Below are positions 30,651 to 46,527 of a stretch of 64,000 bases of DNA, piece after piece. The first letter of the stretch is position 1, and every line of letters begins with the position of its first letter. Origin of the DNA: Candidatus Sulfomarinibacteraceae bacterium (GTDB lineage Bacteria > Acidobacteriota > Thermoanaerobaculia > Thermoanaerobaculales > Sulfomarinibacteraceae); the NCBI GenBank assembly GCA_963796455.1, contig CAWCLO010000006.1, positions 156,087 to 220,086 of the forward strand, read 5' to 3'. A program made the position numbers and the translations under genes. Under the pieces are notes generated by a model. The model saw nothing but the letters and a program-made list of their open reading frames with translations. It ran no database searches and had not been told where the DNA came from.

Positions 30651-30778
30651 GACAATCCCCCACCATCGTTTGGCGATCATTGTGACTTCAGGTACGAGCC
30701 GCACGACGCAAAGGTTATCGCAGCGCACCGCACCGCTGTAGAATGGCGCCGCGTCGCATGAGCGACGCGGGGGGGAAA

Positions 30779-32906
30779 ATGAAACGACAGCTTCTCTCGA
30801 TAACCCTGTCCGGTCTCACGACGATCGCCCTACTGGGTTGCGGTTATGTCGAAGACACCTCGACCGCCATCGCCTATCCGCCAACCGAGCGCGGCGATGT
30901 TGTCGACACCTATTTCGGTGTGGAGGTTGCCGACCCCTATCGGTGGCTCGAGGATCTCGATGGCGAGTCGGTGGCTGCCTGGGTCAAGGCCCAGAACGAC
31001 ATCTCCTTCCCCTTCCTCGAGGCGATCCCACAACGCGAAGCGATCAAACAACGTCTGACCGAACTGTGGAATTACGAGCGCTATGGGATACCGAAGAAAG
31101 AGGGCGCCAGGTACTTCTTCGCCCGCAACGACGGCCTCCAGGATCAGAGCGTGCTCTATGTCTCCGAATCCCTCGAAGGTGAGCCCCGGGTCCTGATCGA
31201 CCCCAATACCTTTTCCGATGATGCCACGATCGCCCTGTCTTCCTGGGTGCCGAGCCCCGATGGAAAGTGGATCGCCTATTCCACCTCCGACGGCGGAACC
31301 GATTGGAAGACCTGGCACATCCGCAACGTGGACACCGGAGAGGACCTTGCGGACTCGATCAACCGCTGCAAATTCACCGGCGTCTCGTGGTCAAAAAACA
31401 GCGGCGGCTTTTTCTACAGCCGCTACCCGGCCGGCGAGGATGGCAGGGGCGACGGTTCGAAAACCACCTCGGTCTATTTCCACACCAAGGGCACGTCACA
31501 GGAAGATGACGAGCACATCTACACCATTCCCGGCGGCACGAAAAAGAACCCCTACGCGACGGTCACCGACGATGGCAATTATCTGGTCGTGACCAATCGT
31601 TATGGCTATGACGCCAACGAAGTCTTTTATCTTCGCCTCGGCTCCGGCCAGACCGATCACACAGCCATTTTCGATCAATGGGACGCGCGCTACAACTTTG
31701 TCGGCAACGACGGAGAAACTTTTTTCTTCTGGACCAACAGGGATGCGCCACGGGGACGCGTGATCGCCGTTGATCTTGGAGCAGGAGCAGGCTCCCTCCG
31801 TGAGGTCGTGCCCGAGGCCGAGGAAACTCTGAGCTCGGTCTCCTTTGTCGGCCGACACCTCATCGGACAATACTTGCGGGACGCCCACAGCCTGATCCGG
31901 GTTTTTGCAGAGGATGGAGCCCTCGTCCGCGAGGCGGCGCTCCCGGGCATGGGCACTGCGCGCGGTTTTTCCGGCCGCGGCGACGACACCGAGACCTTCT
32001 TTTCCTACACCGATTTCACGACACCGACCGCGATCTTCCGATACACGGTGGACAGCGACGAGAGCAAGCTCTTCGCCCGCTCCCAGCCCCCGGTCGATCT
32101 CACCGGTTATGAGGCCAAACAGGTTTTCTTCGAATCGAAGGACGGCACCCGGGTGCCCATGTTCATCGTCCATCGCAAGGGACTGGCTCTCGACGGGCAG
32201 AATCCAACTCTGCTCTATGGATATGGCGGATTCAACAGCTCGCGAGACTCCGTCCTACCGCTCGACGCGGATGGTGTGGCTCGAGATGGGAGGCGTGCTG
32301 GTCATCGCCAACATCCGCGGCGGCGGCGAGTACGGCAAGGCTTGGCACGTAGCCGGCACCAAGCTGCAGAAACAGAACGTCTTCGATGACTTCATCGCGG
32401 CGGCCGAGTGGCTGATCGCCAACGGCTATACCTCGACCCCGAAACTGGCCGTCCAGGGGGGCAGCAATGGCGGCCTCCTGGTCGGCGCCGTCATCACCCA
32501 ACGTCCTGATCTCTTTGGTGCGGCGCTGCCTGCCGTCGGGGTGCTCGACATGCTGCGCTACCACCTGCCCAGTGCCAATGCCCGACAGTGGTCGTCGGAC
32601 TACGGTCTTTCGGAAAACGAGGACGAGTTCCGGGCACAGCTCGCCTACTCGCCCTATCACAACACGGTCGAGGGCACCTGTTACCCGCCTACACTGATCA
32701 CCACCGCTGACCACGACGACCGGGTGGTTCCGTGGCACAGTTTCAAGTTCGGAGCGGCGCTGCAGAACGCCCAGGCATGCGACAACCCGATCCTGATCCG
32801 GGTCGAAACCCGGGCCGGTCACGGCTCCGGCAAACCCACCTGGATGCAGATCGAGGCGATCGCGGACCAGTGGGCGTTTCTGGCAAAGGCATTGCACCTT
32901 GAATAA
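30779..32906 (+). pseudogene. Prolyl oligopeptidase (S9A) lipoprotein; one frame break (pseudogene or indel error)
   Basis: N-terminal propeller in ORF 30743..32389 (DPYRWLEDLD, lipobox LLGC). Catalytic domain in ORF 31905..32906 ([21 protein letters not shown]). Frame changes at ~32238-32246, between YGYGGFNSS and [17 protein letters not shown]. Confidence 0.85.
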
Positions 32907-32927: not shown

Positions 32928-34062
32928 ATGACTGCGACCGGAAAAAACACCGTCGACTGCCCGCATCGCGTCCCGTGTGGCGCCTGCTCACTGCTGCGAA
33001 AGCCCTACCCGGAGCAGCTCAAACAAAAGCGACGGTGGCTCGGCGAAGCCCTCGACAAAGAACTCACCATTCAGACCGAGCAGGTGCTTCTGACCCTCGA
33101 GTCGCCTCTGATCGAGGGCTATCGAAACCGGGCCAAGATGGCGATCTCCACCGATCGCGACAGGCGATCCAGTCTCGGGTATTTCCAACGGCGCAGCCGG
33201 GAGGTGGTGGACGCACCCGATTGCGGCGTGCTGGTCCCGGAGTTGCTCCAGACCACCCGGAGTCTCCGCCGCTTGATGAATTCATCCACCCGATTTCCCT
33301 TCGTACTCCGGCATGTCGACCTCCGCTGCGGCAGCGATCCTCGACAACAGCACCTGACCCTCGTCATCAAGTCGGAGACCCTGCCAAAGATCCCTCTCGA
33401 GGCCATCGTGAATGCCTGCCCCAACGTGGCCGGGATCGCCGTCAACCTCAACCCCAAAGGAGGTCCCCAGGTCATCAAGGGCCGGATTGATCCCCTGTGG
33501 GGCGAACGCGAGGTCTGGGTCCGATCCGCAGGCCTCGAATTGAGAGTCTCCCCAGGTTCGTTTTTCCAGGTGAATCTGGGCCTTTTGGAGAAGATCCACT
33601 CGCGGATGGCGGAGTTTCTCGGAGAAGGCAAACTGCTCTTCGACCTGTACGCCGGTGTCGGAACCCATGCCCTTGCCCTGCGTCAACAGTTCCGGCGCAT
33701 CCTCTGCGTCGAGGGCGTCCGCAGCGCAACGGCGGATGCCAAAGCGGCGGTCAAATTGGGCCGGGTGGAAAATGTCGAGATCCTGGCCAATCCGATCCGC
33801 CGCGCACTGCACCGGCTCCGTTCCGAAAAACCCGACGCCGTGATCCTCAACCCTTCCGCTGCCGGCGCCGAAGAATTGGCCCTTGAAATGATCGTCGAGT
33901 CAACGGCGACGCTCGGTGGCCTATCTCTCCTGCGACCCCGAGACCCTTGCCCGCGATCTCGCCATCCTCGTCAAGGGCGGTTTCAAACTGGTCACGGTCC
34001 AGGCCGTCGACATGATGCCGCAGACCCGGCAGGTGGAATCGCTGACACTCTTGCGTCGCTGA
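32928..34062 (+). pseudogene. SAM-dependent RNA (uracil-5)-methyltransferase, TrmA/RlmD family; one frame break near the 3' end
   Basis: Cys cluster CPHRVPCGACSL, SAM motif LFDLYAGVGTHAL. After ~33915-33920 the correct frame reads [48 protein letters not shown]-stop (34060-34062). Confidence 0.8.
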
Positions 34063-34152
34063 CCACGGCGTCCGTCGGCAAAGCTCCCCGATGACGTTAC
34101 CGGTAAAAGCCGCCATCGGTTGACCGTCACATGAGCCGACGAGAATCGCTGT

Positions 34153-35336
34153 CTATCTCGTGCTCCACGTCCCGCTGCACGAATAAGCCTCGCCCCAGGC
34201 GGTGGCCACGTTCTTGATTTCACCGCTGCCGGTGAGAGCGTTGCCGGAAGCCGATGGGTTGACGTGCCCCGTCATCACGATGGTGTCCATCGATGTGACC
34301 GAGATCTCGCCGGCGGCATTGACCGTTCCCTCCGCGATTCGGGTGAAATTATCGAAGTACAAAAGACCTTCGGCCTTGGGCACTTTGACGGTCAGGTCGA
34401 AATTCCCGGTCGTCGTCACTGCCCCGATCGGCTGGCATTTCCACTGGTAATCACCCTTCAAGGTGTACTCCCCGCTGCCCAAATGACCACTGCCGGTCGA
34501 TGGTGAAGCCACGGTGCTCGGCGGTTGGTTCGGAACCACAGGCGGTGGTGGTGGCGGGGCGGTCGTCGGTGGTGACGGCTGCGATTGCGTTTGGCCCGCA
34601 GGTGGAGACACCGGCGCGTCGGTCCCACCGGGCTGTGGATCGCCGATCGTGGCCAACGCCGACTCCAGCTGTCGTCGCAGCTCCGGATCCTTGATCTGAC
34701 TCATATCGATCTTGCCCACCATCGATCCCGATTCCTCCGGTTGCGGCGTCGGCACGGGAGTGGGAACGGCCCGGATGGTCGGCGTTGGTGTTGGTGGTGG
34801 CGGCGGCGGCTGATTCCTCGGCGGGTTTCCCGGAGGGTTCCCAGGAGGGTTCCCAGGAGGGTCCTTCCGGGAGGCAACACGAGAGGAGCCGGCGGCATGG
34901 CGCAGCGCAGTTGCCCCCTGTCGTTGGGCAAACACTGCATGCCGGCGCCACAGATGGCGGTTCCACAGCATTCCGCGGGCGGCACCGCACAGCGCGAGCC
35001 ACCGGCGCAGTTCATGCAGACCATGCCAGCACCGCAGATCGCCGAACCACAGCACACTGCCGGACGAACTGCACAGCGTGAACCACCGGCGCAGTTCATA
35101 CAGATCATGTTGTCGCCGCAAACGGCGTCGCCACAACACACCGCTGGCGGCACAGCGCACTCGGGGCCACGCGCACAAACGATGCATTGCATGTTCGGGC
35201 CGCAATCGTCGGAGCCCGGTCGACAGTCGTCTGCCCACAAGACCGTTGGTTGGATCAACGCGTAACCTGAAATGATCAACACACAGACCGCAAACCCGAG
35301 AGAGTACCGAGGCCTCGAGAACGTTTGTTCATTCAT
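34153..35336 (-). pseudogene. Secreted protein: Cys-rich 31-aa repeats x3, Pro-rich linker, C-terminal beta-rich domain; one frame break
   Basis: ATG 35336 (GGGGAGAG RBS) with signal/TM segment. Repeats have the form CCGxAxCGxxMxCxNCAGGSRCAVxPA, in ORF 34701..35444. The linker KDPPGNPPGNPPGNPPRNQPPPPPPTPTPT and the rest are in ORF 34153..35238. Shift near 34870-34900. Confidence 0.6.
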
Positions 35337-35356
35337 CTTCAACTCTCCCCGCCGGA

Positions 35357-36496
35357 TCACGGCGCCGTTCGAAACATGGAGTATCCGCTGTGAGCAAACC
35401 AAGGGTCGCTCTTTTGGCTGCGATCGCAAGCCGCCACTCGCCAAATGTAGTAGATGTTCGCCACCAGCCCATTGGCCTGTGTCAGAGTGTAGTAATCACC
35501 CGGGGCCCAGTCGGCAACCATCGGCGTCCACTGCTGGGTGGCCGCATTCCACCACCAGATCTCGATCCAGAAAGCGAGCGGATCTCCGTCCGGGTCACCG
35601 TTGTTCTGCCACGAAAGCTGGATGGCCCCCTCATATCGCAACGGAAACGGAGATTCCCACCCTCCGGGAGAAACGGTAGGTGCATTCGGAGGTCGATTGA
35701 CGGCTGGAGGTGCAACGGTCGGTTGCGGCGGCGGTGGCGAGACCTGGCCACCGCAGTCGGTGCAGGCGTAGACTCGTGCGTCCTTCCCGACAACAATCGG
35801 CTGTCCACCCTCGGATACCGACACCCGGGCCGCGCCCTGCGGTGGTCGGTGCCGCCGCCACTGGTTTCCGTCGTGGCTCCAGAGATTGCCGCCCGTGTCG
35901 GCCACCCACACGTGGCCGCGGCCGTCGATGTCGAGATCGCCGACTTTCGGCCCGCCGCTCACCTCCAGGTTCGTCCACTTGCCGTTGGTGATGCGGTGGG
36001 GCCCACCGCCGTTCCCGATGGCCGCCATGACACCGGCGGCGTTGCTCTCGATCCCCAGACCGTAGCCGATTTTGGCGTTCTTCCATCCCTGGCCGTCGAA
36101 GTAGTGAAAGTGCCTGCCACCCCCCAAGGAGGCCCACGGCCGGTTCTGGGCGTCCACCGAGATCCTCGAGGCAGTGGCGCCGGGGATCTCGTTCCAGCCC
36201 GAGCCGTTGCTCTTGTAAATTTTCCAGCCCGAGGGCCCCGCGACCACCGGTTTCTGATCCGGTCCGACATCGATGACCGTGGCCCCGGTCAATGGCGTTG
36301 CGTGCGGCTGCCAACCAGAGCTGGTGGCAAAATAGATCCGATTGTCCTCCCCCACGACCCATACCGTGGTCCCGGAGATGGATACGTCCTTGGCCTTGAT
36401 ACCGATGTCGTTCCACTGCTCGGCGCCGGACGGATCCGCAGACAGAATCAAAACCACGAATACAACGAGAAGAACCATAGGATGTAACCGTTTCAT
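35357..36496 (-). CDS. Secreted tectonin-like (TECPR) beta-propeller protein with C-terminal FN3-like domain
   Basis: ATG 36496 (GGCAGGAGGA RBS) and signal peptide. Repeated W..I.G.a..ISv....vWvv.....iy units (e.g. WNDIGIKAKDVSISGTTVWVVGEDNRIYFATSSGW). 20-nt gap to the downstream Cys-rich gene. Confidence 0.75.
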   Translation of the reverse strand: MKRLHPMVLLVVFVVLILSADPSGAEQWNDIGIKAKDVSISGTTVWVVGEDNRIYFATSSGWQPHATPLTGATVIDVGPDQKPVVAGPSGWKIYKSNGSGWNEIPGATASRISVDAQNRPWASLGGGRHFHYFDGQGWKNAKIGYGLGIESNAAGVMAAIGNGGGPHRITNGKWTNLEVSGGPKVGDLDIDGRGHVWVADTGGNLWSHDGNQWRRHRPPQGAARVSVSEGGQPIVVGKDARVYACTDCGGQVSPPPPQPTVAPPAVNRPPNAPTVSPGGWESPFPLRYEGAIQLSWQNNGDPDGDPLAFWIEIWWWNAATQQWTPMVADWAPGDYYTLTQANGLVANIYYIWRVAACDRSQKSDPWFAHSGYSMFRTAP

Positions 36497-36599: not shown

Positions 36600-36627
36600 T
36601 TGCAACAATGTCGAATCATCGTAGAAT
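36600..36627 (+). promoter_or_regulatory. Candidate sigma70-like promoter
   Basis: TTGCAA (36600-36605), 16-nt spacer, TAGAAT (36622-36627), 26 nt before the ATG at 36653 with a GAGGAGG RBS. Palindrome GATTTAAATC at 36577-36586 lies just upstream. Confidence 0.4.
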
Positions 36628-36652
36628 CGGCGCACACAAAGAGGAGGTCGCA

Positions 36653-38077
36653 ATGGAAACGCTACCCGGCAATGGGGTCGATGCGCTACCCGGTCTTGGA
36701 GCCTTCTTCGGACTCAGCCTGCTCTGCGGATTGGTGCTCTACATCTACTTCTGCTTCATGCTGATGAAGATCGCCAACCGAACTCAAACTCCCGATGGGT
36801 GGATGGCGTGGATCCCGATTCTCAACTTCGTTCTGATGTGCCGGATCGCCGGCCGCCCGAGCTGGTGGGTGATTCTGATGCTCATTCCGTTCGTCAATCT
36901 GATCGCCTTCATCGTGATCTGGATGGGCATCGCCGTGGCCTGCGGCAAGGACAGTTGGATCGGGTTGCTCATCATCGTTCCAGTCGTCGGACTCTTGATG
37001 CCCGCCTACCTGGCGTTCTCGGGCGGCCTGGGAGTTGCGCCATCTGCCAGACCAAAGGCCCCCGTCGCTTCGCCTCCCGCACGCAGTGCCACCGGCTGTG
37101 CGGCTTGCGGCGCCGGCGTCGATCCCGGCGACTCCTTCTGTGGCAGCTGCGGCCAAGCGATACCGCAGACGGTCCCCGCCGCGCCCTCCACACCATCATC
37201 GGGGCCGAGGTTGGTCCTGGCTTTGGTCGCCGTGGCGGCGATTGTGGGCATGGCTGCCATCGGTTTTCTCGGCTACCGCATGCTGAGCAGAGCGGCCGCC
37301 AGCGCCGCCTCCGGGTTCGAGCTGGAGAATCCCACGGCCGATAACAAGTCTCGGATCCGGAGCCCTCCTCCCGCAACGAGGCGGACGGCGACGTCCACCA
37401 CTACGGATCGCTCAACGAGGCCGTGCAGGCCGATGCCCAACCGACGGATCAGCGGATCACGAAACCTTCCAGGTCACCGAGGACGATTCCTACGAAGGCG
37501 CAGCGCCGCCCATTGGTGTGCAGAGTTCCACCGTCGATCTCGGCTCCGGGGTCGAGACCGGGCAAGGCGCCCCGCTGGTTTACCGAGAATCCAGTGGCGC
37601 ATCGTTAGGCACCAATGACGAACTGATCGCTGCGGCCATCGAAGGTCCGGTCGATAGGGTCCTGGATCTGATCGGCCGCGGGGCCAACGTCAACGCCCGG
37701 ACGAGACCGGACAGATTCCCCTGGTGATGGCCGTCCTCGGAGGTGACCCCGACATCGTCGGCACGCTCGCAGCCGCGGGCGCCGACCTCAACGCAACAGA
37801 CTCCGAAGGGCGGACTGCTCTCCACTACGCCATTGACCCGTTCATCACCGATATCCTGCTGACCTCAGGGGCTGATGCCAACGCCCGGGACCGCAACGGC
37901 ATCACCCCGCTGATGGAAGCGGCCGATGCAGGCGAGGCGGAGACGGTCGGGATGCTTCTGGATTACGGCGCAAATCCAGGCGCAAGGGATTCGTCGGGCA
38001 GATCCGCGATGTCGATCGCCCGCGAAAATGGTTTCGACGATATCGAGCAGCTTCTCGAGAACGCGGGTGGGATGTAG
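36653..38077 (+). pseudogene. Mosaic membrane protein: DUF5684-like TM domain, zinc ribbon, TM helix, acidic linker, ankyrin repeats; needs three -1 frame corrections
   Basis: Frame 2 covers METLPG..WMAWIPILNFVLMCRIAGRPSWWVILMLIPFVNLIAFIV, CAACGAGVDPGDSFCGSCG and a TM helix. It then switches frame at ~37345, ~37461 and ~37699 into NDELIAAAIEG..GANVNAR(D)ETGQIPLVMAVLGGDPDIV..GRTALHYA..GITPLMEAADAGEAE. Each switch equals a 1-nt deletion. Confidence 0.6.
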
Positions 38078-38079
38078 GG

Positions 38080-41000
38080 TCAGTCTTTTCGCGCGAAGAT
38101 CCAGCTGAAACGGAACTCGTAATCGGTTCCCGTTTTCGGATCGTCGAGGGAACGTACGATATCCGCCGGGGAGTTGATAAAGCTTTCCCTCGGCGAGAAG
38201 AGTTGAACCTCCGAAAGCAACCCCGCCTCTCTTGATTTCAAGGTCAGAGAACGAAACCCTGACGGTTTCAAAGGGATGTCCGCCAGCATCGGGTCTGAAA
38301 CAGGCATGAGCGCAACGCTCTTCACCGTCAGGTAGTACTCCCCGTCAAAGCGGCGGATGCTGAACTTCGCCGGCAAACCAGGAGAACGAATCAACTTACC
38401 AAGGGCCGGCGCAACCTCCTCGACACCCTTGATCAATTCGCCGCCCAACTCCTCCATGAATTTCTGGTCCTCTTGCGCCTCTCGTTTTTGGCTGCGCTCG
38501 TGATCGGTGGCCGTGGGCAAGCGACGGATTCTGGCCCTCTCCTGATCCACCTGCTCGTTATAGATGCTCCTGACCTGGACCATGCTTTTGGTGAGGTAGA
38601 GGCCGTGCGTCTCGCGGACGAAACCCGACCAGTCGCCGACAAAGGGATCGCGATTCGGGACCGGTGCCGGGTGACTTTCATTGCCGAACTCGTCGATAAC
38701 GCTCACCGTGAAGACGTAGTCGTCGGTCGAAGGCATGCCGGGGTCGTAGTCGTAAGACTCCAGTCTCGTTCGATCGACCCGGCTGAACGCAGAGTTCGGC
38801 TGCCCCGCAAGCTTCCGAAAGACCTGATACTCGCGCCAGACCTCTGGATAATTTTTGAGGGCGACCTCGTCCCACTCGACCTGCCAGGTATTTGCGGGCG
38901 TTTGCCAGTACCGAACGTTTTCCGGGGGGACCAAAAGCCACCGCTGGACATTTACTCCGCGAACCGACTCCTCCAGTGAACGGTTGACCGCCACTACCGT
39001 GACGCAGTCGGGATGAGATTCTTGACCGACCTGGTCGATCACCAGGATCGGCAGTTTGTCCGGCGCCAGGGGGATCTTTTCCATCGGATCCGGGCGGCCG
39101 GGATAGGGTGCGAATCCGATGCATTCATCCTTCCCCATATACAGCGCCAGGTCCGGCGAGACAGGCTCGTTGCTTTCGAATCGAACCACCAGCTTCGCTT
39201 TTTGGGTTTCGGGAAACTCCCCCACGCTCATGTAGACAGCTTCAGCGGAAAGATGCGGCAGGTGGCGGCGCCCGTGTTTTTCTTCAACCCCGAACTCGTG
39301 TGACGCCCACGGATTGACAAAATGCCAGGAGGTACCGGGTAACCCGATTGAGACGTTGATGAACTTCTTATCGGTCAGAGAAAGCGCCTCCATCAGAACC
39401 GGCTGAAAGGCGCCAGTGTGGTATCCCGGGACCATACCTGGAGATCGCCCATGCCCCTTCCAGAACTCGTTGTGGAAAAAATCCAGTGCGAATTCCGTAA
39501 ACAGATCGGCCAGACCCCGATTGCCACCCTTCAAAGTTTTTCTACCCGCCGCATCGAGATCCTCGAGCTCGACGAAATGACCCAACCAGCTTTCAGCCGC
39601 AGCCACGAGAAACTTCAACCCGGCTCGCGTGCCGAAGCCCTGGTCCAACCACCGCGGAAAAACGAAGTACGGGTCGATGACCAATCCACCCGCGTCCATC
39701 GGCCACTGAGGGATGACGCCACCTTTCACTACCGACGTCGGCAAAAGCCGTTTCAGTGGCCGTCCCTGATCCTCCCAGTAATGGAAGGCGACGTAGGCGG
39801 CCATGAGATCGATGAACCATCCCGAATAACGGGCCGTGAGCGCGCTGAAATGCTCGTCGAGCGCTACGTTTGTAAGTTCGCGCGCCGCGGCGTAGCGGAT
39901 GATCTCGTCGGCTGGGACCCGCGCCCTCGCGGCGAGACTAATCAGCTCCGACGAGACGAACAACGGTCCGCCGAGTTGCGTGGCTCCAAACCAATGTCCG
40001 ATGCCCTGAACGAATACGTCGTGCCGGATGATTTTGACCACCGGCACATCGAGACCCATCTTGTTGAAACCCGTCAGACAGTCCTCCAGCAGTTCTCCGA
40101 GATACCGCACGTAGAGTGGATGGCCGTCCGGGGTGTTTTTGCCACCAAACGTAACGCCGGCCTCACGAAAAGCCTTGTCGTCCGGGACGGCATGTTTCCC
40201 GGTCGTCACATAGTGGATCTTGAAGTTTCCTCTCGGTGTTTCGTACTCGAGTCCAGAGGTAACCCACCACGCCGCTGAGTAGACCTGTGCGCGACCCGTG
40301 CTGGTCCCCGCGACCGCTCCCACCGCCGCAAGACCGGCCACACCCACCGGCCACGCGACACTTGTACCAGCACCAGCAGCAGCAGCCAGGTTGAGCGTGC
40401 TGCCCGCAATCTGCGGGACCAGGGCAGGGGTTGGGATAGCCGCAATGGGGGCGGCGACGCTTGCATGCGGGAGTTCGGCGGTGATGGTTTTTTTCTCGCG
40501 ATCGATCCGCGACGGGAACGCCACCCAGCGGCCGTTTTCCCAGCATGCGATAGCCGGCAGATCCCCATCGCTCAGCCCTTCATAGGGCAAGGTCAAGGTC
40601 ACCGGTCGTTGAAAGGTGTAGTGCTCCCGGTCACCGATGCGGAGGTCCACCGCCGGTCCGGCGAATGGTGCCGCCATCTCGTCCGAGACCCTGAGCAACG
40701 GGGTCATCGATATCTCTGTGGCGATACCGATGGCGCCGGGTGGGACCTTGAGAGATGCAGTTTCTGAAAATGCCAACTCGGCGCCGCTCGCGGGCTCGTA
40801 GTGTGTCGCGACCCGGCCGAAATCGAAGTCGACCCGTTCACCCGGAGGTTGGGGCTCGGACCGCTCACCGGTCGTCGACTGCTCCTCGGCCCACCGCGCC
40901 CACGCTTCCGGATTGTCCACCAGCGTGATGTGCGGTTCGTACCGCGGCCCCCGCCAGAACGCCATCCGGTCGAACCATTTCGGATTGATCCACAGGACCA

Positions 41001-41094
41001 GTACGAGCTCCACCAGAAGTACGACTGTCAGGCAGAATGATCGAGAAGCAACCGAGGCAGCCGAGGTTCGATTGCTTGCCGTGGGGGCGTTCAT
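38080..41094 (-). CDS. Large (1004 aa) N-terminally membrane-anchored hypothetical protein
   Basis: ATG 41094 behind AAGGGGGTG. TM helix FCLTVVLLVELVLVLWI. No HExxH or other catalytic motif found. FN3-like stretch (VRYWQTPANTWQVEWDE...YVFTVSVIDEFGNES). Charged helix ERARIRRLPTATDHERSQKREAQEDQKFMEE. Intact 3-kb frame. Confidence 0.7.
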   Translation of the reverse strand: MNAPTASNRTSAASVASRSFCLTVVLLVELVLVLWINPKWFDRMAFWRGPRYEPHITLVDNPEAWARWAEEQSTTGERSEPQPPGERVDFDFGRVATHYEPASGAELAFSETASLKVPPGAIGIATEISMTPLLRVSDEMAAPFAGPAVDLRIGDREHYTFQRPVTLTLPYEGLSDGDLPAIACWENGRWVAFPSRIDREKKTITAELPHASVAAPIAAIPTPALVPQIAGSTLNLAAAAGAGTSVAWPVGVAGLAAVGAVAGTSTGRAQVYSAAWWVTSGLEYETPRGNFKIHYVTTGKHAVPDDKAFREAGVTFGGKNTPDGHPLYVRYLGELLEDCLTGFNKMGLDVPVVKIIRHDVFVQGIGHWFGATQLGGPLFVSSELISLAARARVPADEIIRYAAARELTNVALDEHFSALTARYSGWFIDLMAAYVAFHYWEDQGRPLKRLLPTSVVKGGVIPQWPMDAGGLVIDPYFVFPRWLDQGFGTRAGLKFLVAAAESWLGHFVELEDLDAAGRKTLKGGNRGLADLFTEFALDFFHNEFWKGHGRSPGMVPGYHTGAFQPVLMEALSLTDKKFINVSIGLPGTSWHFVNPWASHEFGVEEKHGRRHLPHLSAEAVYMSVGEFPETQKAKLVVRFESNEPVSPDLALYMGKDECIGFAPYPGRPDPMEKIPLAPDKLPILVIDQVGQESHPDCVTVVAVNRSLEESVRGVNVQRWLLVPPENVRYWQTPANTWQVEWDEVALKNYPEVWREYQVFRKLAGQPNSAFSRVDRTRLESYDYDPGMPSTDDYVFTVSVIDEFGNESHPAPVPNRDPFVGDWSGFVRETHGLYLTKSMVQVRSIYNEQVDQERARIRRLPTATDHERSQKREAQEDQKFMEELGGELIKGVEEVAPALGKLIRSPGLPAKFSIRRFDGEYYLTVKSVALMPVSDPMLADIPLKPSGFRSLTLKSREAGLLSEVQLFSPRESFINSPADIVRSLDDPKTGTDYEFRFSWIFARKD

Positions 41095-41171
41095 GACAGC
41101 ACCCCCTTCATGGTGAGCACAATGAGCACGAAAAGAGCAAAGTCGATGGCCAACCAGGTCTGGAGGCCGAT

Positions 41172-41796
41172 TCAGGGCCACCCTCCGCGACCGACCCGGC
41201 CGCCGGCGTCAGCAATCCGCCGAGCCCCCATGTGCGCCTCGACAAAACCGACAACCCAGGGGATGACGAGCGGGCTGAAGACCAACAGCAGGAATCCAAG
41301 GAAAGGCTTTCCGTTGTATGACTGACCGGCCCCCGGAACCAGGATCCCCGAGAATAACGCCACCACCGGGCTGTGGCGGCGCGCTCCGGGTGCCAGTTCG
41401 ACGACCGGTGGAGGAGCCTCTTTTCTTGGCGTCGGCGCGGCTTGTTTCTTCGGAGGCGGGGTCATCTTTGGTTTCGGCTTGGGGGGCTGTTTTGACTCGA
41501 CACGGGCATCCGACGAAGAGGAACCGCAGGAACTGCAAAACCGGGCGTCCGAATCGAGCTTGGTTCCGCACGATCCACAGACCAGAGTCTGGATCGGCAA
41601 CGGCCCGGCCTCGAGAATCCTCTCGGCTCCGCATTTGGAACAGAATCTCTTGCCCTTTGGAATCTCAGCGCCGCAATCGCTGCAGGTGGGCCTCGGTGAC
41701 CTTGGGGCAGGCCTTTCCGAGAGCCCCCCCACACGTGGTGCAGAAACGCGTTTCCAGTCGGTTTCGGTGCCCACACTCGCCGCAGGTAGTACTCAT
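41172..41796 (-). pseudogene. Triple zinc-ribbon protein with C-terminal TM domain; frame broken at a 7-nt homopolymer
   Basis: ATG 41796 behind AAAGGAGG. Zinc ribbons CGECG..FCTTCG / CSDCG..FCSKCG / CGSCG..FCSSCG. Removing one base from C7 (41724-41730, G7 on the coding strand) gives one continuous 207-aa ORF ending at 41172. Confidence 0.7.
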
Positions 41797-41828
41797 CGAC
41801 CTGCGCCTCCTTTGGCTGATTGAGCGAG

Positions 41829-41858
41829 ATTGTACAGGCACCGGATCTTTTTTGGGAA
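41829..41858 (-). promoter_or_regulatory. Candidate sigma70-like promoter for the zinc-ribbon / 1004-aa gene pair
   Basis: On the minus strand: TTCCCA, 18-nt spacer, TACAAT, about 30 nt upstream of the ATG at 41796. Confidence 0.3.
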
Positions 41859-41916: not shown

Positions 41917-42429
41917 TCAGGGACCGGTGTTCCCGTCGTCCGTCACATCCACCGCCACCGCGTAGCAGAGTTCACGATCCGGATCCACGATCGCGGTCCA
42001 CTCGAAAACTATGTAGCTTCCATCAGCAGCCAGGTGTCGATTTCGAAATCCCCGGGTCTGCTCGCCGGCCACCAGCTGTTCCATCACGTACATGGTCTCG
42101 AGGTGGTCTGCCGGATGTACGCGATCCAAAAACGAGCTCTCGAGAATTTCCTGCTCCGAGTAGCCGAGGGTGTCGCAGAGCTTTTGGTTGACCCGCAGAA
42201 ATCTACCTTCGACCAGGTCCGCGATCACGAACATCACCAGCGTCTGGTCAAAAAAGCCCTCGATGATTTGTGCTGCCTCGGGCACAAGGGCTGCGTCCTC
42301 GACGCGAATGCCGAGTAGTTTTTCCAACTCGATCACCCGTGCTCGAAGAGCTCGGACATCATCAGTGAGGATGGGGTCGATAATCTGGGCCTTTCTCTCC
42401 TCGGGCCGAAGTTCGTTTACTTTACCCAA
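41917..42429 (-). CDS. PAS domain protein with N-terminal coiled segment
   Basis: PAS core FFDQTLVMFVIADLVEGRFLRVNQKLCDTLGYSEQEILESSFLDRVHPAD...FRNRHLAADGSYIVFEWTA. TTG start with no clear RBS. Confidence 0.7.
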   Translation of the reverse strand: MGKVNELRPEERKAQIIDPILTDDVRALRARVIELEKLLGIRVEDAALVPEAAQIIEGFFDQTLVMFVIADLVEGRFLRVNQKLCDTLGYSEQEILESSFLDRVHPADHLETMYVMEQLVAGEQTRGFRNRHLAADGSYIVFEWTAIVDPDRELCYAVAVDVTDDGNTGP

Positions 42430-42621: not shown

Positions 42622-45600
42622 ATGTCGAAACAACGATTTGTTATCGTTCTTGCCGTTCTTTCAATGATTGCCGCTGCACCCGGGCTCGGGGCCCAGGACC
42701 TGATCATCACCGGTGTGATCGACGGCCCGCTCAGCGGAGGAATTCCGAAGGCAGTCGAATTCTACGCCGTGAATGCCATTCCCGATCTCTCGATCTACGG
42801 CTTCGGTTCGGCCAACAACGGTGGCGCGGGTGGAGTCCAAGAGTTCACATTCCCTTCATTGAGTGTCAGTTCCGAGGCCTTCATCTATGTCGCAAGCGAA
42901 ACGACTGGATTCACCACGTTTTTTGGATTTGGACCGGACTCCACGAGCAGCGCCGCAAACATCAACGGTGACGACGCCATTGAGCTTTTCCAGAACGGAT
43001 CGGTGGTCGACGTTTTCGGAGAGGTCGGCGTCGACGGAACCGGACAACCCTGGGAGTACACGGACGGCTGGGCCTACAGGGTTGATGGAACGGGCCCCGA
43101 TGGAACGACGTTTGTCCTTGGTAACTGGTCGTTCAGCGGGCCCAATGCACTCGATGGTGAGACCACCAACGACACGGCCGCAGTACCATTCCCGATCGGC
43201 ACATATGTTGCCGGGTCTCCTCCCCCGCCCGCCGCACCGGATCTGCTCTTGACTGAACTCGTTGTCACCCCGACCGGTGGCGAGTTCATCGAGATCCACA
43301 ATCCCACAGCACAGAACATCGATCTGTCGGATGTTTATCTGACCGACGCCACCTTTGCCGGCGGCAACACCTTCTACTACAACATCGTGACCGGCAGTAA
43401 TGCCGGCGGCGGCGGATTCGGGGATTTCCACGCCCGCTTCCCCGATGGCTCCTCCATCGGCCCCGGTGCCTACCAGACTGTGTCGCTCGCCGGCTCTGAT
43501 GACTTCTTCGCAGAGTTCAGCAGCAATCCCGACTACGAACTTTATGAGGACGGAACACCGGACGCCATTCCCGACATGCGTGAAGCCCTGCCAGGGTCGA
43601 TCAACGGCCAGGGCGGTCTGACCAACAACGGCGAAGTGGTCATCCTCTATACCTGGGATGGACTGTCCGATCTGGTGGCCGATATCGACTATGCGGTATG
43701 GGGCGACAAGGCGGAAGCCGTCGACAAGACCGGAATCTCCATCGACGGGCCCGACGCCGATTCCGACACCTCGACCTATTTGGACGACACGGCCATCCCG
43801 TCGCAAGACGTTGTTGATGTGGGAGGTCATGCGATTGGAACATCCTTCCAGCGGGTCGATCTCGCCGAAGGTACCGAGACCCAGACCGGCGGCAACGGTC
43901 TCACCGGTTCCGACGAGACCTCTGAAAACCTCTCGGCAACCTGGTCCACGGACACGACTCCCACCCCGGGCGGTGCCTATGTCCCGCCGACCCCGCCGAC
44001 CGTATGGATCATCAACGAGATCCACGCTGACCCGGCGGGCGATATCAGCGGCGACGCCAACAATGACGGCGAACGCGATGGCTCTGATGACGAGTTCGTC
44101 GAGATCATCAATGTCAGTGGTTCGGTGGCGGACATCTCCGGTTGGACCCTCGCCGACGGCTTCGGCGTCCGTCACGTCTTCCCGGCTGGAACGATCGTCG
44201 AGAACCAATGCGGCGTCGTGGTTTTTGGCGGCGGCGTCCCGACCGGACCCTTCGGCGGAGTCGTTGTGCAAACGGCATCGGGTGGATCATTGGGTTTCAA
44301 TAACTCGGGCGACACCGTCACACTCAACAATGGATCGGCCGATGTCGCCGTCGCTTCCTACGGTGGCGAAGGCAGCGACAACCAATCCCTGACCCTCGAC
44401 CCCGATCTCACCGGCGCACCCTGGACCAAGCACAGCATCGCCACCGGCTCCGGCGGCTCGCTCTTTTCGCCCGGAACCCTGGTTGACGGCTCACAATTCG
44501 GCGGCTGTCCCTTCGTGGGGGTCGAGTATCGCGAGATCTTCGAGATCCAGGGCAACGGTCTCGTTTCACCCTATGTGGGTCAGACGGTGTTGACCGAGGA
44601 CAACGCGGTCACCGCCCTGGCCCCCGATGGTTTCTTCATGCAGACTCCGGCAGGCCGAAGCGATGGCGATGTGGACACCTCCGACGGCATTTTCGTTTTC
44701 ACCGCCGGCGCGCCGACCGTGGCGGTCGGTGACCGGGTCGATGTCACCGGTGTGGTGGCCGAATTTTTCTTTTTCACCGAGCTCAACTCGCCGACGGTGA
44801 CCATCGTGGGTGCCGGTTCGGTGCCCGGCGCGGTCGCATTCAATGCAGCTGTTCCGACACCCGATCCGGCCTTCCCATCGTGCGCCATCGAGTTCGAGTG
44901 CTACGAGGGCATGAAGATCGACGTGGCCAATGGGACGGTCACCGGCCCCAACCAGCGTTTTGGCACCGATCCCATCGCGGAAGCCCACATCGTCACCTAC
45001 TCCGAACGCGCCTTCCGTGAGCCCGGCGTCGAGTTCCCGGGACTCGGGATGCCACCCATCCCGACCTGGGACAGCAACCCGGAGGTATTTGAACTCGATC
45101 CCGACAAACTGGGTCTGCCGAACCAGATCCTGCCGGGAGGTTCCACCTTCTCGGCCACCGGTGTGCTCGGCTACGAGTTCGGCGGCTATGAATTGTGGCC
45201 CACCGAACTCACAGTCGATCCGGTCACTCTGCCCCGGATGGTCTGGCCGCGCGAAATCGGAGAGTTCACGGTTGGAAGCCTCAATCTCTACCGGCTCTTT
45301 GACGACGTCGACGACCCCATCGACGATCAGGGACGAAATGATGCGGTGGTCTCCACCGCCGAGTACACGACCCGTTTGGTGAAGCTTTCGGCCCACATCC
45401 GCTTGGTGCTTGATGCACCGGATGTTTTGGCAGTTCAAGAAGCAGAAAAACTCGGCGTCCTCGAGGATCTGGCGGACCAGATCGCATTCGACGATCCGAG
45501 CATCTCCTACCGCGCCTATCTCGTTGAGGGCAATGACGTCGGGACGATCGACATCGGTTTCATGGTCCGTGATGGTGTCAACGTCGACACCATCACCCAA

Positions 45601-46527
45601 CTCGGCAAGGACGAGATCTTTACCTTTGATGGATCGCTACTCCACGACCGTCCGCCCCTGCTCCTCGAGGGCAGCTGTCAGCTCGAATTCGGTACATCGC
45701 CGATCGCGGTACTCGGTGTTCACAATCGATCCCTGAGCGGGATCGACGATCCATCGGACGGCGAACGGGTCCGGCTGAAACGCTACACACAGGCGGAGTC
45801 CATCGCGATGATGGTGCAGGACCTCCAGATCACCGACCCCGACATTCCGTTGGCCGTGGTCGGAGATTTCAACGCCTTTGAGTTCACCGATGGTTATGTG
45901 GATTCGGTGGGTATCATCAAGGGTGACTTCGTGCCGGCTGAAAGCCTGATCTGCTCAACCGAACCGTGTGCGGATTTGGTGGATCCGGACCTCACAAACC
46001 AGGTGCTCAACCTGCTACCCGACGAACGCTACTCGTTCATATTCCAAGGCAGCGCCCAGGCCCTCGACCACGTGCTCACGAGCGAAGGCCTCGACCCCGA
46101 AGTCACCGCCCTCGCCTTCGGACGCGGCAACGCCGACGCAGCGGTCGAGTTGCGCAGCGACGACACCAGCGCCGCAACCCTACCGCTTCGCGCATCCGAC
46201 CACGATGGCCTGGTGCTTTACCTGCTCAAGGACGAGGATGGAGATGGGGTGCCCGACGCAAGCGACTACTGCCCCGGGACGACCGTTCCCGAATCGGTGC
46301 CCACGGTACGCCTCGGCACGAACCGATGGGCGCTGGTGGATGACGATGGGTATTTCGACACCAAGACGCCCAACAGCAAACCACCGAAGCGGTGCTACTC
46401 GCTGCAGGACACGGCAGGCTGCTCGTGTGAGCAGATCATCGAAGCCCTTCACCTCGGCAAGGGACACGAGAAGTTCGGCTGCAGCAACGGCGTGATGGAT
46501 CACTGGGTCGAAGTCGTCCAGCACTGA
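42622..46527 (+). CDS. ExeM/NucH-type extracellular endonuclease (lamin-tail domains + endonuclease/exonuclease/phosphatase domain)
   Basis: Signal peptide. Two LTD-like modules (LLLTELVVTPTGGEFIEIHNPT; WIINEIHADPAGD...DEFVEIINVSG). EEP motifs (FTVGSLNLYRLFD ... ASDHDGLVLYL). C-terminal DEDGDGVPDASDYCPG Ca-binding-like motif. GAAGGAG RBS. Confidence 0.9.
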   Translation: MSKQRFVIVLAVLSMIAAAPGLGAQDLIITGVIDGPLSGGIPKAVEFYAVNAIPDLSIYGFGSANNGGAGGVQEFTFPSLSVSSEAFIYVASETTGFTTFFGFGPDSTSSAANINGDDAIELFQNGSVVDVFGEVGVDGTGQPWEYTDGWAYRVDGTGPDGTTFVLGNWSFSGPNALDGETTNDTAAVPFPIGTYVAGSPPPPAAPDLLLTELVVTPTGGEFIEIHNPTAQNIDLSDVYLTDATFAGGNTFYYNIVTGSNAGGGGFGDFHARFPDGSSIGPGAYQTVSLAGSDDFFAEFSSNPDYELYEDGTPDAIPDMREALPGSINGQGGLTNNGEVVILYTWDGLSDLVADIDYAVWGDKAEAVDKTGISIDGPDADSDTSTYLDDTAIPSQDVVDVGGHAIGTSFQRVDLAEGTETQTGGNGLTGSDETSENLSATWSTDTTPTPGGAYVPPTPPTVWIINEIHADPAGDISGDANNDGERDGSDDEFVEIINVSGSVADISGWTLADGFGVRHVFPAGTIVENQCGVVVFGGGVPTGPFGGVVVQTASGGSLGFNNSGDTVTLNNGSADVAVASYGGEGSDNQSLTLDPDLTGAPWTKHSIATGSGGSLFSPGTLVDGSQFGGCPFVGVEYREIFEIQGNGLVSPYVGQTVLTEDNAVTALAPDGFFMQTPAGRSDGDVDTSDGIFVFTAGAPTVAVGDRVDVTGVVAEFFFFTELNSPTVTIVGAGSVPGAVAFNAAVPTPDPAFPSCAIEFECYEGMKIDVANGTVTGPNQRFGTDPIAEAHIVTYSERAFREPGVEFPGLGMPPIPTWDSNPEVFELDPDKLGLPNQILPGGSTFSATGVLGYEFGGYELWPTELTVDPVTLPRMVWPREIGEFTVGSLNLYRLFDDVDDPIDDQGRNDAVVSTAEYTTRLVKLSAHIRLVLDAPDVLAVQEAEKLGVLEDLADQIAFDDPSISYRAYLVEGNDVGTIDIGFMVRDGVNVDTITQLGKDEIFTFDGSLLHDRPPLLLEGSCQLEFGTSPIAVLGVHNRSLSGIDDPSDGERVRLKRYTQAESIAMMVQDLQITDPDIPLAVVGDFNAFEFTDGYVDSVGIIKGDFVPAESLICSTEPCADLVDPDLTNQVLNLLPDERYSFIFQGSAQALDHVLTSEGLDPEVTALAFGRGNADAAVELRSDDTSAATLPLRASDHDGLVLYLLKDEDGDGVPDASDYCPGTTVPESVPTVRLGTNRWALVDDDGYFDTKTPNSKPPKRCYSLQDTAGCSCEQIIEALHLGKGHEKFGCSNGVMDHWVEVVQH

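Follow-up and report, generated by a model that had tools for sequence, protein, structure and literature searches.

Self-cleavage domains of the ZU5, Nup98 and GPS types were united by Zhang et al. in 2012, who noted them in bacterial surface enzymes, and ZU5 self-processing was proposed as a general feature of such enzymes (PMC3482391). Here we describe a locus on the minus strand (38080–41796) of a 64,000-nucleotide stretch of DNA from a Candidatus Sulfomarinibacteraceae bacterium (contig CAWCLO010000006.1), the whole of which is called the window below. Judged by its sequence, the locus is probably one copy of a conserved two-gene inner-membrane module, in which a zinc-ribbon adaptor is joined by a large membrane-tethered protein of ZU5/metalloprotease-like type. 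The module is widespread yet unstudied, and the window copy has a dead protease site and a broken adaptor gene. An earlier annotation made from the same DNA, the original prediction, had proposed a two-gene unit at this position, and two co-oriented genes are indeed found there.

As in the bacterial ZU5 autopeptidases (PMC3482391), the enzymatic body of the window family is preceded, towards the N-terminus, by a ZU5 beta-sandwich that contains an H-x-S/C motif. Unlike them, the family is held by an N-terminal membrane helix and not by a signal peptide or SpvB/RHS setting, comes in strict partnership with an adaptor gene of its own that encodes three helices, shows no toxin or immunity logic, and has mostly HAS or HCS as its motif in place of HFS. 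A second point of comparison is offered by FIIND (ZU5-UPA) of NLRP1 and CARD8 and by the GAIN/GPS region of adhesion G-protein-coupled receptors (GPCRs), where self-cleavage at an H-x-S/T turn leaves the downstream fragment held non-covalently by one hydrophobic strand, as may also happen in the window family. The likeness is limited to the ZU5 fold and the motif; the window family has no UPA, CARD or seven-transmembrane (7TM) part, is bacterial and probably extracytoplasmic, and its cleavage is a prediction only. The central domain of its members further shares HExxH and a Glu about 20–25 residues later with the MXAN_6640 family (NF045524), for which the literature search found no paper, whereas the window protein itself lacks both the His and the Glu residues. 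Finally, the adaptor resembles the small TM2/DUF5683 ('YozV') membrane proteins, which are often fused to double zinc ribbons. Its PGxGQxYNG motif weakly matches the start of DUF5683 (E 3e-5 to 2e-2, 15–25 bits against a cut-off of 26.7, profile positions ~2–50 only), some adaptor relatives bear TM2 or YozV labels from JGI or Pfam, and a few have precomputed PF05154 or PF18935 assignments. In contrast to TM2/DUF5683 proteins, the adaptor has a third helix and a GGRxGRGG loop and is obligately coupled to a ZU5-peptidase gene, and all matches of its membrane module stay below the Pfam thresholds. The literature search on DUF5683 found nothing relevant. Three features appear to be new: the fixed association with a three-helix adaptor, the domain order as a whole and the retained dead-site clade. 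The literature searches returned no paper on any of them.

The original prediction had regarded the unit as an orphan, and a word-indexed protein search, which gave only three relatives, left that impression in place. An exhaustive search with a HMMER profile built from these three overturned it, returning 1169 proteins at E<=0.001; at E<=1e-30 there were 79 cluster representatives, of which some 45 are full length (900–1050 residues) and laid out as the window protein is. Seven members, in Phycisphaera (Planctomycetota) and in metagenome-assembled genomes of Acidobacteriota/Thermoanaerobaculia, were also found when the GTDB species genomes were scanned with a 12-sequence alignment and the motif HELIHVAQ, which the window copy lacks. 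The family has no Pfam model, so annotation pipelines label its members hypothetical.

The pairing of the two genes recurs throughout the family. Starting from the large protein, 13 independent loci were examined (L001, L002, L004–L011 and L014–L016), and in all but one of them (L001, L002, L004–L006, L008–L011, L014–L016; 12/13) a partner gene lies directly upstream with a four-nucleotide stop/start overlap. The partners share an end module of ~100 residues (HSPxxA..PGxGQAYNGxP..LVLPW..DAxxxAxRI..GGRxGRGG..W..L..W....LT..GVL), a search with which returned 58 relatives. When three of these were used as the starting point, the large-protein family was found immediately downstream each time with the same overlap (hmmsearch E 1e-91 to 2e-265), so that both search directions together give the overlapping pair in 15 of 16 independent loci. 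What precedes the end module varies: two or three zinc ribbons in the window, L001, L011, L015, L016 and L017, an FHA-like part in L005, L006, L008 and L010 (weak Yop-YscD_cpl matches, E~0.007), GYF in some relatives, and no domain at all in L004, L014 and L019. Apart from the adaptor, neighbours differ from locus to locus, and a gene for DUF5684 with a zinc ribbon joins the pair as a third neighbour in just the window and L011–L013 (E=5e-32 to the L011 gene). A gene-neighbourhood analysis had been suggested as a check on co-conservation; the recurrent linkage answers it and supports the view that the pair is a real, conserved, envelope-associated unit, as the original prediction had supposed.

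The large gene runs uninterrupted from the ATG at 41094 to the stop at 38080 (minus strand) and encodes 1004 residues: a membrane anchor, a ZU5 domain and a pseudo-peptidase. An AlphaFold model was obtained from an 84-sequence alignment (predicted local distance difference test, pLDDT, 87.3; predicted template modelling score, pTM, 0.76), while a model from a four-sequence alignment was unusable (pLDDT 48) and was discarded. By alignment and model, the chain opens with a membrane helix at residues 11–36 (40987–41064), followed by the conserved NPxWFDRxAFWR and, in the model, by short helices up to residue 75. A ZU5-superfamily beta-sandwich at residues ~91–220 (40435–40824) comes next and is separated by a low-confidence hydrophobic linker (221–261) from the MXAN_6640-like zinc-peptidase domain (~265–580; 39355–40302), which is alpha/beta in the model and catalytically degenerate. 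The remainder comprises a beta-sandwich region (581–721) and an FN3-like domain (722–832), together at 38599–39354 with the conserved RWLLxxP, and then a long helical hairpin (833–905) and a C-terminal beta domain (906–1004), at 38083–38598 with the conserved DPFxGxWxG ahead of them. In the model, these last two span 834–903 and 907–1002. FN3 matches are weak by both sequence and fold; when the whole protein or the family profile was compared by sequence with solved structures, only sub-threshold FN3-type matches appeared, and Foldseek against viral structures gave nothing beyond generic beta-sandwich and FN3 matches. Four motifs of the family are notable for their conservation: at window residues ~20–60 a Gly-Cys pair directly ahead of the membrane helix and NPxWFDRxAFWR directly behind it, RWLLxxP (718–724) where the FN3-like domain starts, and DPFxGxWxG (816–824). 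The intact 3-kb gene, the FN3-like stretch and the charged helix of the original prediction are thus all recovered, the last as long charged helices in the model.

The original prediction had offered a ZU5-like module after the anchor as an impression, and profile searches bear it out. A profile (A5) whose first row is window residues 88–222 matches the solved ZU5 domains of ankyrin-3 (E=9.4e-6), ankyrin-2 (E=1e-4), ankyrin-1 (E=9e-4) and ZO-1 (E=0.019). The family profile matches residues 1240–1396 of the protein P0118 (E=5e-11), a segment that exceeds the Pfam ZU5 cut-off of 21 bits with a score of 33.7; the window protein alone is below the Pfam ZU5 threshold. The model shows an all-beta domain at 95–217 (pLDDT ~80–97), in which strands 203–211 and 213–217 flank the His-Ala-Ser (HAS) sequence at 210–212 (40459–40467). 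This sequence, in a turn before the last strand, is the predicted self-cleavage motif, of the kind known from ZU5, Nup98 and GPS domains. Across the family, the His of the H-x-S/C motif is present in 39/40 members and the Ser/Cys in 40/40, and distant bacterial relatives and outgroups carry the canonical HFS, also HLS or HFT. On both profile and motif grounds, the large protein is predicted to be a member of the ZU5 superfamily.

Unlike the ZU5 motif, the active site of the central domain has been lost in the window. HELxHxxQ followed by WxExxAxY about 20–25 residues on is found in 40 of 43 aligned members, and 33 of these 43 match NF045524 (MXAN_6640_HExxH; best E 1.7e-12). The window protein gives no NF045524 match and has RELTN in place of HExxH (residues 405–409; 39868–39882) and Asp429 (FIDLMAAY) at the third-ligand position, which is Glu in at least 90% of relatives. 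Other dead-site variants are YNLAW in the sister protein P0002, KDLTY in the fragment P0072 and HDLTH in P0074, and the next relatives, P0005 and P0012, are intact. In a rough neighbour-joining tree, the window protein groups with P0002, and P0003 (GRLLA) is placed elsewhere, which points to at least two independent losses of the peptidase site. Identity between the window and P0002 is 52.5% for the dead domain, equal to the whole-protein figure; the fold is therefore still under constraint, as expected for a pseudo-peptidase rather than a rotting gene. The window protein, like its sister, is thus classed from its residues as a pseudo-protease, and its sequence makes it only a distant, catalytically dead relative of the MXAN_6640 metalloprotease family. 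The claim that the protein has no HExxH and no catalytic signature holds for the window copy but not for its family, a putative zinc metallopeptidase. Similarly, homology to a known enzyme family, which the original prediction had named as a refutation, applies in part through this zinc-peptidase ancestry, although the window copy has lost the metal ligands.

The adaptor gene survives in three pieces. The first (41665–41796) contains the ATG at 41796 and zinc ribbon 1 (MSTTCGECGHRNRLETRFCTTCGG...), matches Pfam DZR and Zn_Ribbon_1 and aligns with the N-terminus of the L011 partner; its frame encodes MSTTCGECGHRNRLETRFCTTCGGALGK... and ends in a TGA after 43 codons, at 41665. The second (41175–41723, in the frame of the open reading frame (ORF) 41774–41172) encodes zinc ribbons 2 and 3, a Lys/Pro-rich linker, membrane helices 1 and 2 and the motif PGAGQSYNG. 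Ribbon 1 and ribbons 2–3 are in different frames, broken at a run of seven guanines (G7; C7 on the plus strand) at 41724–41730, and are joined into a single ORF only if the run is read with one base fewer, as G6. So corrected, the adaptor aligns over its full length with the L011 partner protein (E=9e-37). The second piece ends at an in-frame TGA (41172–41174) at a conserved Trp codon: this alignment column holds Trp in nine and Gly in three of 12 homologues, and the nearest two relatives, at 78% and 72% identity, have GGWPWVGLH and GGWPWIGLQ at the place of GGWP*IGLQ in the window. The third piece (41091–41171) encodes a conserved third membrane helix, IGLQTWLAIDFALFVLIVLTMKGVLS*, as shown by translation and alignment with homologues, and the TGG-to-TGA change would cut this helix off. 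It ends in tcATGA, so that the adaptor stop overlaps the ATG of the large gene, an arrangement typical of the family.

These lesions bear on how the adaptor had been described. The three CxxC..CxxC ribbons proposed earlier exceed the Pfam cut-offs (Zn_Ribbon_1 53–64 bits, DZR 43–54 bits) and the Lys/Pro-rich linker is present, but the 207-residue protein is not one ORF, and the original prediction evidently read through the frameshift. What had been taken as a 77-nucleotide spacer is coding and encodes the conserved third helix; the membrane domain therefore has three helices, not two. Two explanations of the TGA were tried and ruled out. Selenocysteine or another form of recoding is contradicted by the lack of a structure like the selenocysteine insertion sequence (SECIS) downstream (z=0.70), by the position of the site within a membrane helix and by the Trp in relatives. 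An alternative genetic code is contradicted by the lengths of other genes, which fit full-length profiles, as for AcrB, whose match spans positions 2–1016 of 1021.

Several observations weigh against reading the locus as a copy of this module. As written, the adaptor gene cannot yield a full protein, and one locus, L007, lacks the upstream partner. The window protein itself has no match in Pfam, NCBIfam or PADLOC models. The NF045524 matches of its relatives all lie far below the 140-bit cut-off (P0004, 34 bits), so these proteins form a distant sister family rather than members. The secondary structure of residues 265–580 (few strands, then helices) is compatible with a zincin, but no zincin is among the top whole-chain Foldseek matches. 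The same whole-chain search lists the ankyrin ZU5 chain 3kbu_C (target template modelling score 0.60, probability 1.0) without specifying which of the four beta domains was aligned, and the same holds for the GAIN domains of CD97 and BAI3, which are also listed. With regard to topology, the residues flanking the first helix of the window protein show a weak charge bias, and a second hydrophobic stretch follows HAS in ~29 of 39 members; the body would be cytoplasmic if this stretch crossed the membrane.

Since the adaptor has a frameshift and a nonsense codon, the window copy is either being lost or mis-assembled, and its surroundings are of interest in this respect. Disrupted genes cluster at 30.7–41.8 kb, at least five within ~11 kb, the adaptor included. 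A prolyl oligopeptidase gene (30743–32906, plus strand) has a frameshift near 32245, with the propeller PF02897 in the ORF 30743–32389 and the complete catalytic domain PF00326 in the ORF 31905–32906. In a gene for a TrmA/RumA-like tRNA (uracil-5) methyltransferase (32928–34116, plus strand), a frameshift near 33925 leaves the conserved C-terminus (...DMMPQT) out of frame with the N-terminal 300 residues. A secreted Cys-rich repeat protein (34153–35444, minus strand) has an apparent frameshift at a PPGN/PPGT repeat near 34800; one frame holds its signal peptide and Cys repeats, another the Pro-rich linker and C-terminal beta domain. Convergent with the large gene, a gene that combines DUF5684 with a zinc ribbon, membrane helix and ankyrin repeats (36608–38077, plus strand) is spread over three frames, with at least two shifts, one of them between GANVNAR and DETGQIPLVMAV near 37700; in L011–L013 the gene that directly follows the pair is an intact homologue lacking the ankyrin repeats. 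More than 10 genes checked elsewhere in the window are full length, including those for AcrB, HlyD, a kinase-TPR protein, S8 and M19 peptidases, an amidohydrolase, a beta-lactamase-like protein and proteins of 1301 and 1408 residues. This clustering suggests either a locally poor consensus or local decay; a frame plot of GC content at third codon positions was too noisy for mapping all frameshifts in the window.

Local decay leads to a possible but on balance unlikely alternative, in which the locus is a decaying relic: the peptidase is dead, the adaptor is a true pseudogene with a frameshift and a nonsense codon, and neither product is functional any more. The two adaptor lesions (the G7 run and the TGA), the loss of the zinc ligands and the four or more other disrupted genes nearby (the prolyl oligopeptidase, the methyltransferase, the Cys-rich protein and the DUF5684-ankyrin gene) speak for it, and the oligopeptidase frameshift lies outside any homopolymer. 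However, the 1004-codon ORF is fully open, and the dead-site form is common to the window and P0002 (53% identity overall), the dead domain being conserved like the rest, which argues for a pseudo-peptidase kept for a long time. Further, the adaptor pieces flanking each lesion are still 72–78% identical to intact relatives; the damage is thus either very recent or an assembly error, and a cluster of broken housekeeping-type genes would also fit a locally poor consensus.

A different alternative accepts the module and reverses its topology. If the hydrophobic residues behind HAS form a second membrane helix, the peptidase-like body would be cytoplasmic and regulated directly by the zinc-ribbon or FHA domain of the adaptor, and only ZU5 would be outside. 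Where it occurs, the hydrophobic peak has a Kyte–Doolittle 19-residue mean of 1.5–2.5, and the ZU5 domains of eukaryotes are cytoplasmic. Yet the peak is missing in ~10 members of the same architecture, and AlphaFold shows the last ZU5 strand and a low-confidence linker here, not a helix. Bacterial FN3 modules are usually extracytoplasmic. Other bacterial proteins with this type of ZU5 carry SLH, T9SS-tail, PKD and Big_2 modules, which mark them as surface proteins and fit a surface location. Positive charges precede helix 1 in relatives and suggest an N-in orientation with the body outside. On this evidence, a cytoplasmic body seems decidedly improbable.

It has also been considered that the interruptions are regulatory, with slippage at G7 (phase variation or programmed frameshifting) and UGA read as Trp giving a low and tunable amount of full-length adaptor. 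The break in frame falls right at a homopolymer, the UGA takes the place of a Trp codon and the helix downstream is preserved, as such a scheme would need; but other G7 runs in the window are without consequence, no stimulatory structure follows the UGA (z=0.70), neither feature is seen in any of 15 homologous partner genes and unrelated neighbouring genes are frameshifted too, which makes the scheme very hard to credit. Least credible of all is a polymorphic toxin or anti-phage defence element, in which ZU5 would be the peptidase that releases a metallopeptidase toxin: polymorphic toxins do use ZU5 domains as releasing peptidases, and some of them have metallopeptidase toxin heads (PMC3482391), but PADLOC had no matches for the large protein and two relatives (its sole match, of the zinc ribbon to Cas12f at E=0.0014, was spurious), Pfam searches gave no domains of RHS, filamentous or secretion-leader type, the C-terminus is conserved family-wide instead of being a variable cassette, no immunity-like gene and no recurrent small gene lies downstream across loci, and neighbours other than the adaptor vary.

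Among the remaining features of the locus, the Shine–Dalgarno sequence AAGGAGG (41806–41812, minus strand) is found nine nucleotides before the ATG at 41796, in agreement with the ribosome-binding site of the original prediction. The sigma-70-like hexamers TTCCCA-18-TACAAT are likewise present at 41858–41829 (minus strand), but a pattern scan found two such sites in the region against 0.9 +/- 1.0 in shuffled sequences, and they are thus not above chance as a candidate promoter. A search of the window against Rfam gave no match. A stand-alone PAS-domain protein of 170 residues is encoded 120 nucleotides upstream of the adaptor gene on the same strand (41917–42429) and may be co-transcribed with the pair; it is not beside the pair in other loci. 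Further upstream, a gene on the plus strand (42622–46527) encodes a secreted protein of 1301 residues with two lamin-tail domains and a weak endonuclease/exonuclease/phosphatase domain, and the window is generally rich in eukaryote-like modules such as ankyrin, tectonin, reelin subrepeat, Calx-beta and TPR-kinase. In other genomes, the pair in L001 (11989–18643) is surrounded by a zinc-ribbon-FHA-FHA-ABC transporter fusion, a kinase-zinc-ribbon protein, a PP2C phosphatase and a zinc-ribbon-VWA protein, and that in L018 (1–4818) lies, as in L001, within a Ser/Thr signalling cluster, here made up of a PP2C and two kinases, of which one carries a zinc ribbon. L017 (5456–8375 of a 222-kb ENA contig) is another interrupted copy, in which the large gene is split into ORFs of 323 and 645 residues with a 10-nucleotide gap.

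For the conserved two-gene module, we infer the following working from its domain order, motifs and gene linkage. The adaptor would place its zinc ribbons (FHA-like, GYF or no domain in other lineages) in the cytoplasm, ahead of a three-helix membrane module, and would be made in a fixed ratio to the large protein, whose gene is presumably coupled to it translationally through the ATGA overlap. The large protein would be a single-pass, N-in protein, with an extracytoplasmic body made up of ZU5, the zinc-peptidase domain, beta-sandwich and FN3, the helical hairpin and the C-terminal beta domain. ZU5 is predicted to cut its own chain between A211 and S212, and the ectodomain would then be held to the membrane stub solely via the last ZU5 strand. 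In the membrane, the adaptor may pair with the stub and link it to cytoplasmic inputs such as Ser/Thr-kinase and FHA signalling, thereby controlling where the ectodomain is placed, whether it is released or how active it is. Genes for kinases, PP2C and FHA proteins are close to the pair in L001 and L018, and a kinase-TPR gene lies 5 kb away in the window. Most relatives would have an active zinc peptidase as their ectodomain, acting on envelope or extracellular proteins. If the zinc ligands are gone, as in the window lineage (RELTN, Asp429), the large protein would then act only as a non-catalytic binder or scaffold.

A bolder proposal, which we consider quite unlikely, is that the pair is a bacterial counterpart of animal devices that are primed by self-cleavage and released on demand, such as FIIND of NLRP1/CARD8 and GAIN of adhesion GPCRs. 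The ZU5-cut ectodomain would hang on the stub, and the adaptor, with its zinc-ribbon or FHA head and a Ser/Thr-kinase input, would time the removal or rearrangement of the stub, upon which the ectodomain would be shed or switched.

Self-cleavage by ZU5, GPS and FIIND is central to cell-death and adhesion-receptor signalling in animals, while its bacterial relatives have been described only by comparative genomics. The window locus itself is not a clean intact system, as its adaptor gene is interrupted and its peptidase is predicted to be inactive. The family, nevertheless, is a compact bacterial test case, with membrane anchor, ZU5 and enzyme in one chain, and it adds a translationally coupled membrane adaptor with a variable cytoplasmic head (zinc ribbons, FHA-like, GYF) as well as natural dead-enzyme variants. 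If the comparison with the animal devices is true, the pair would provide inside-out control of an envelope effector, which would have peptidase activity in most lineages and, in the window clade, would be a dead pseudo-peptidase that binds a ligand.

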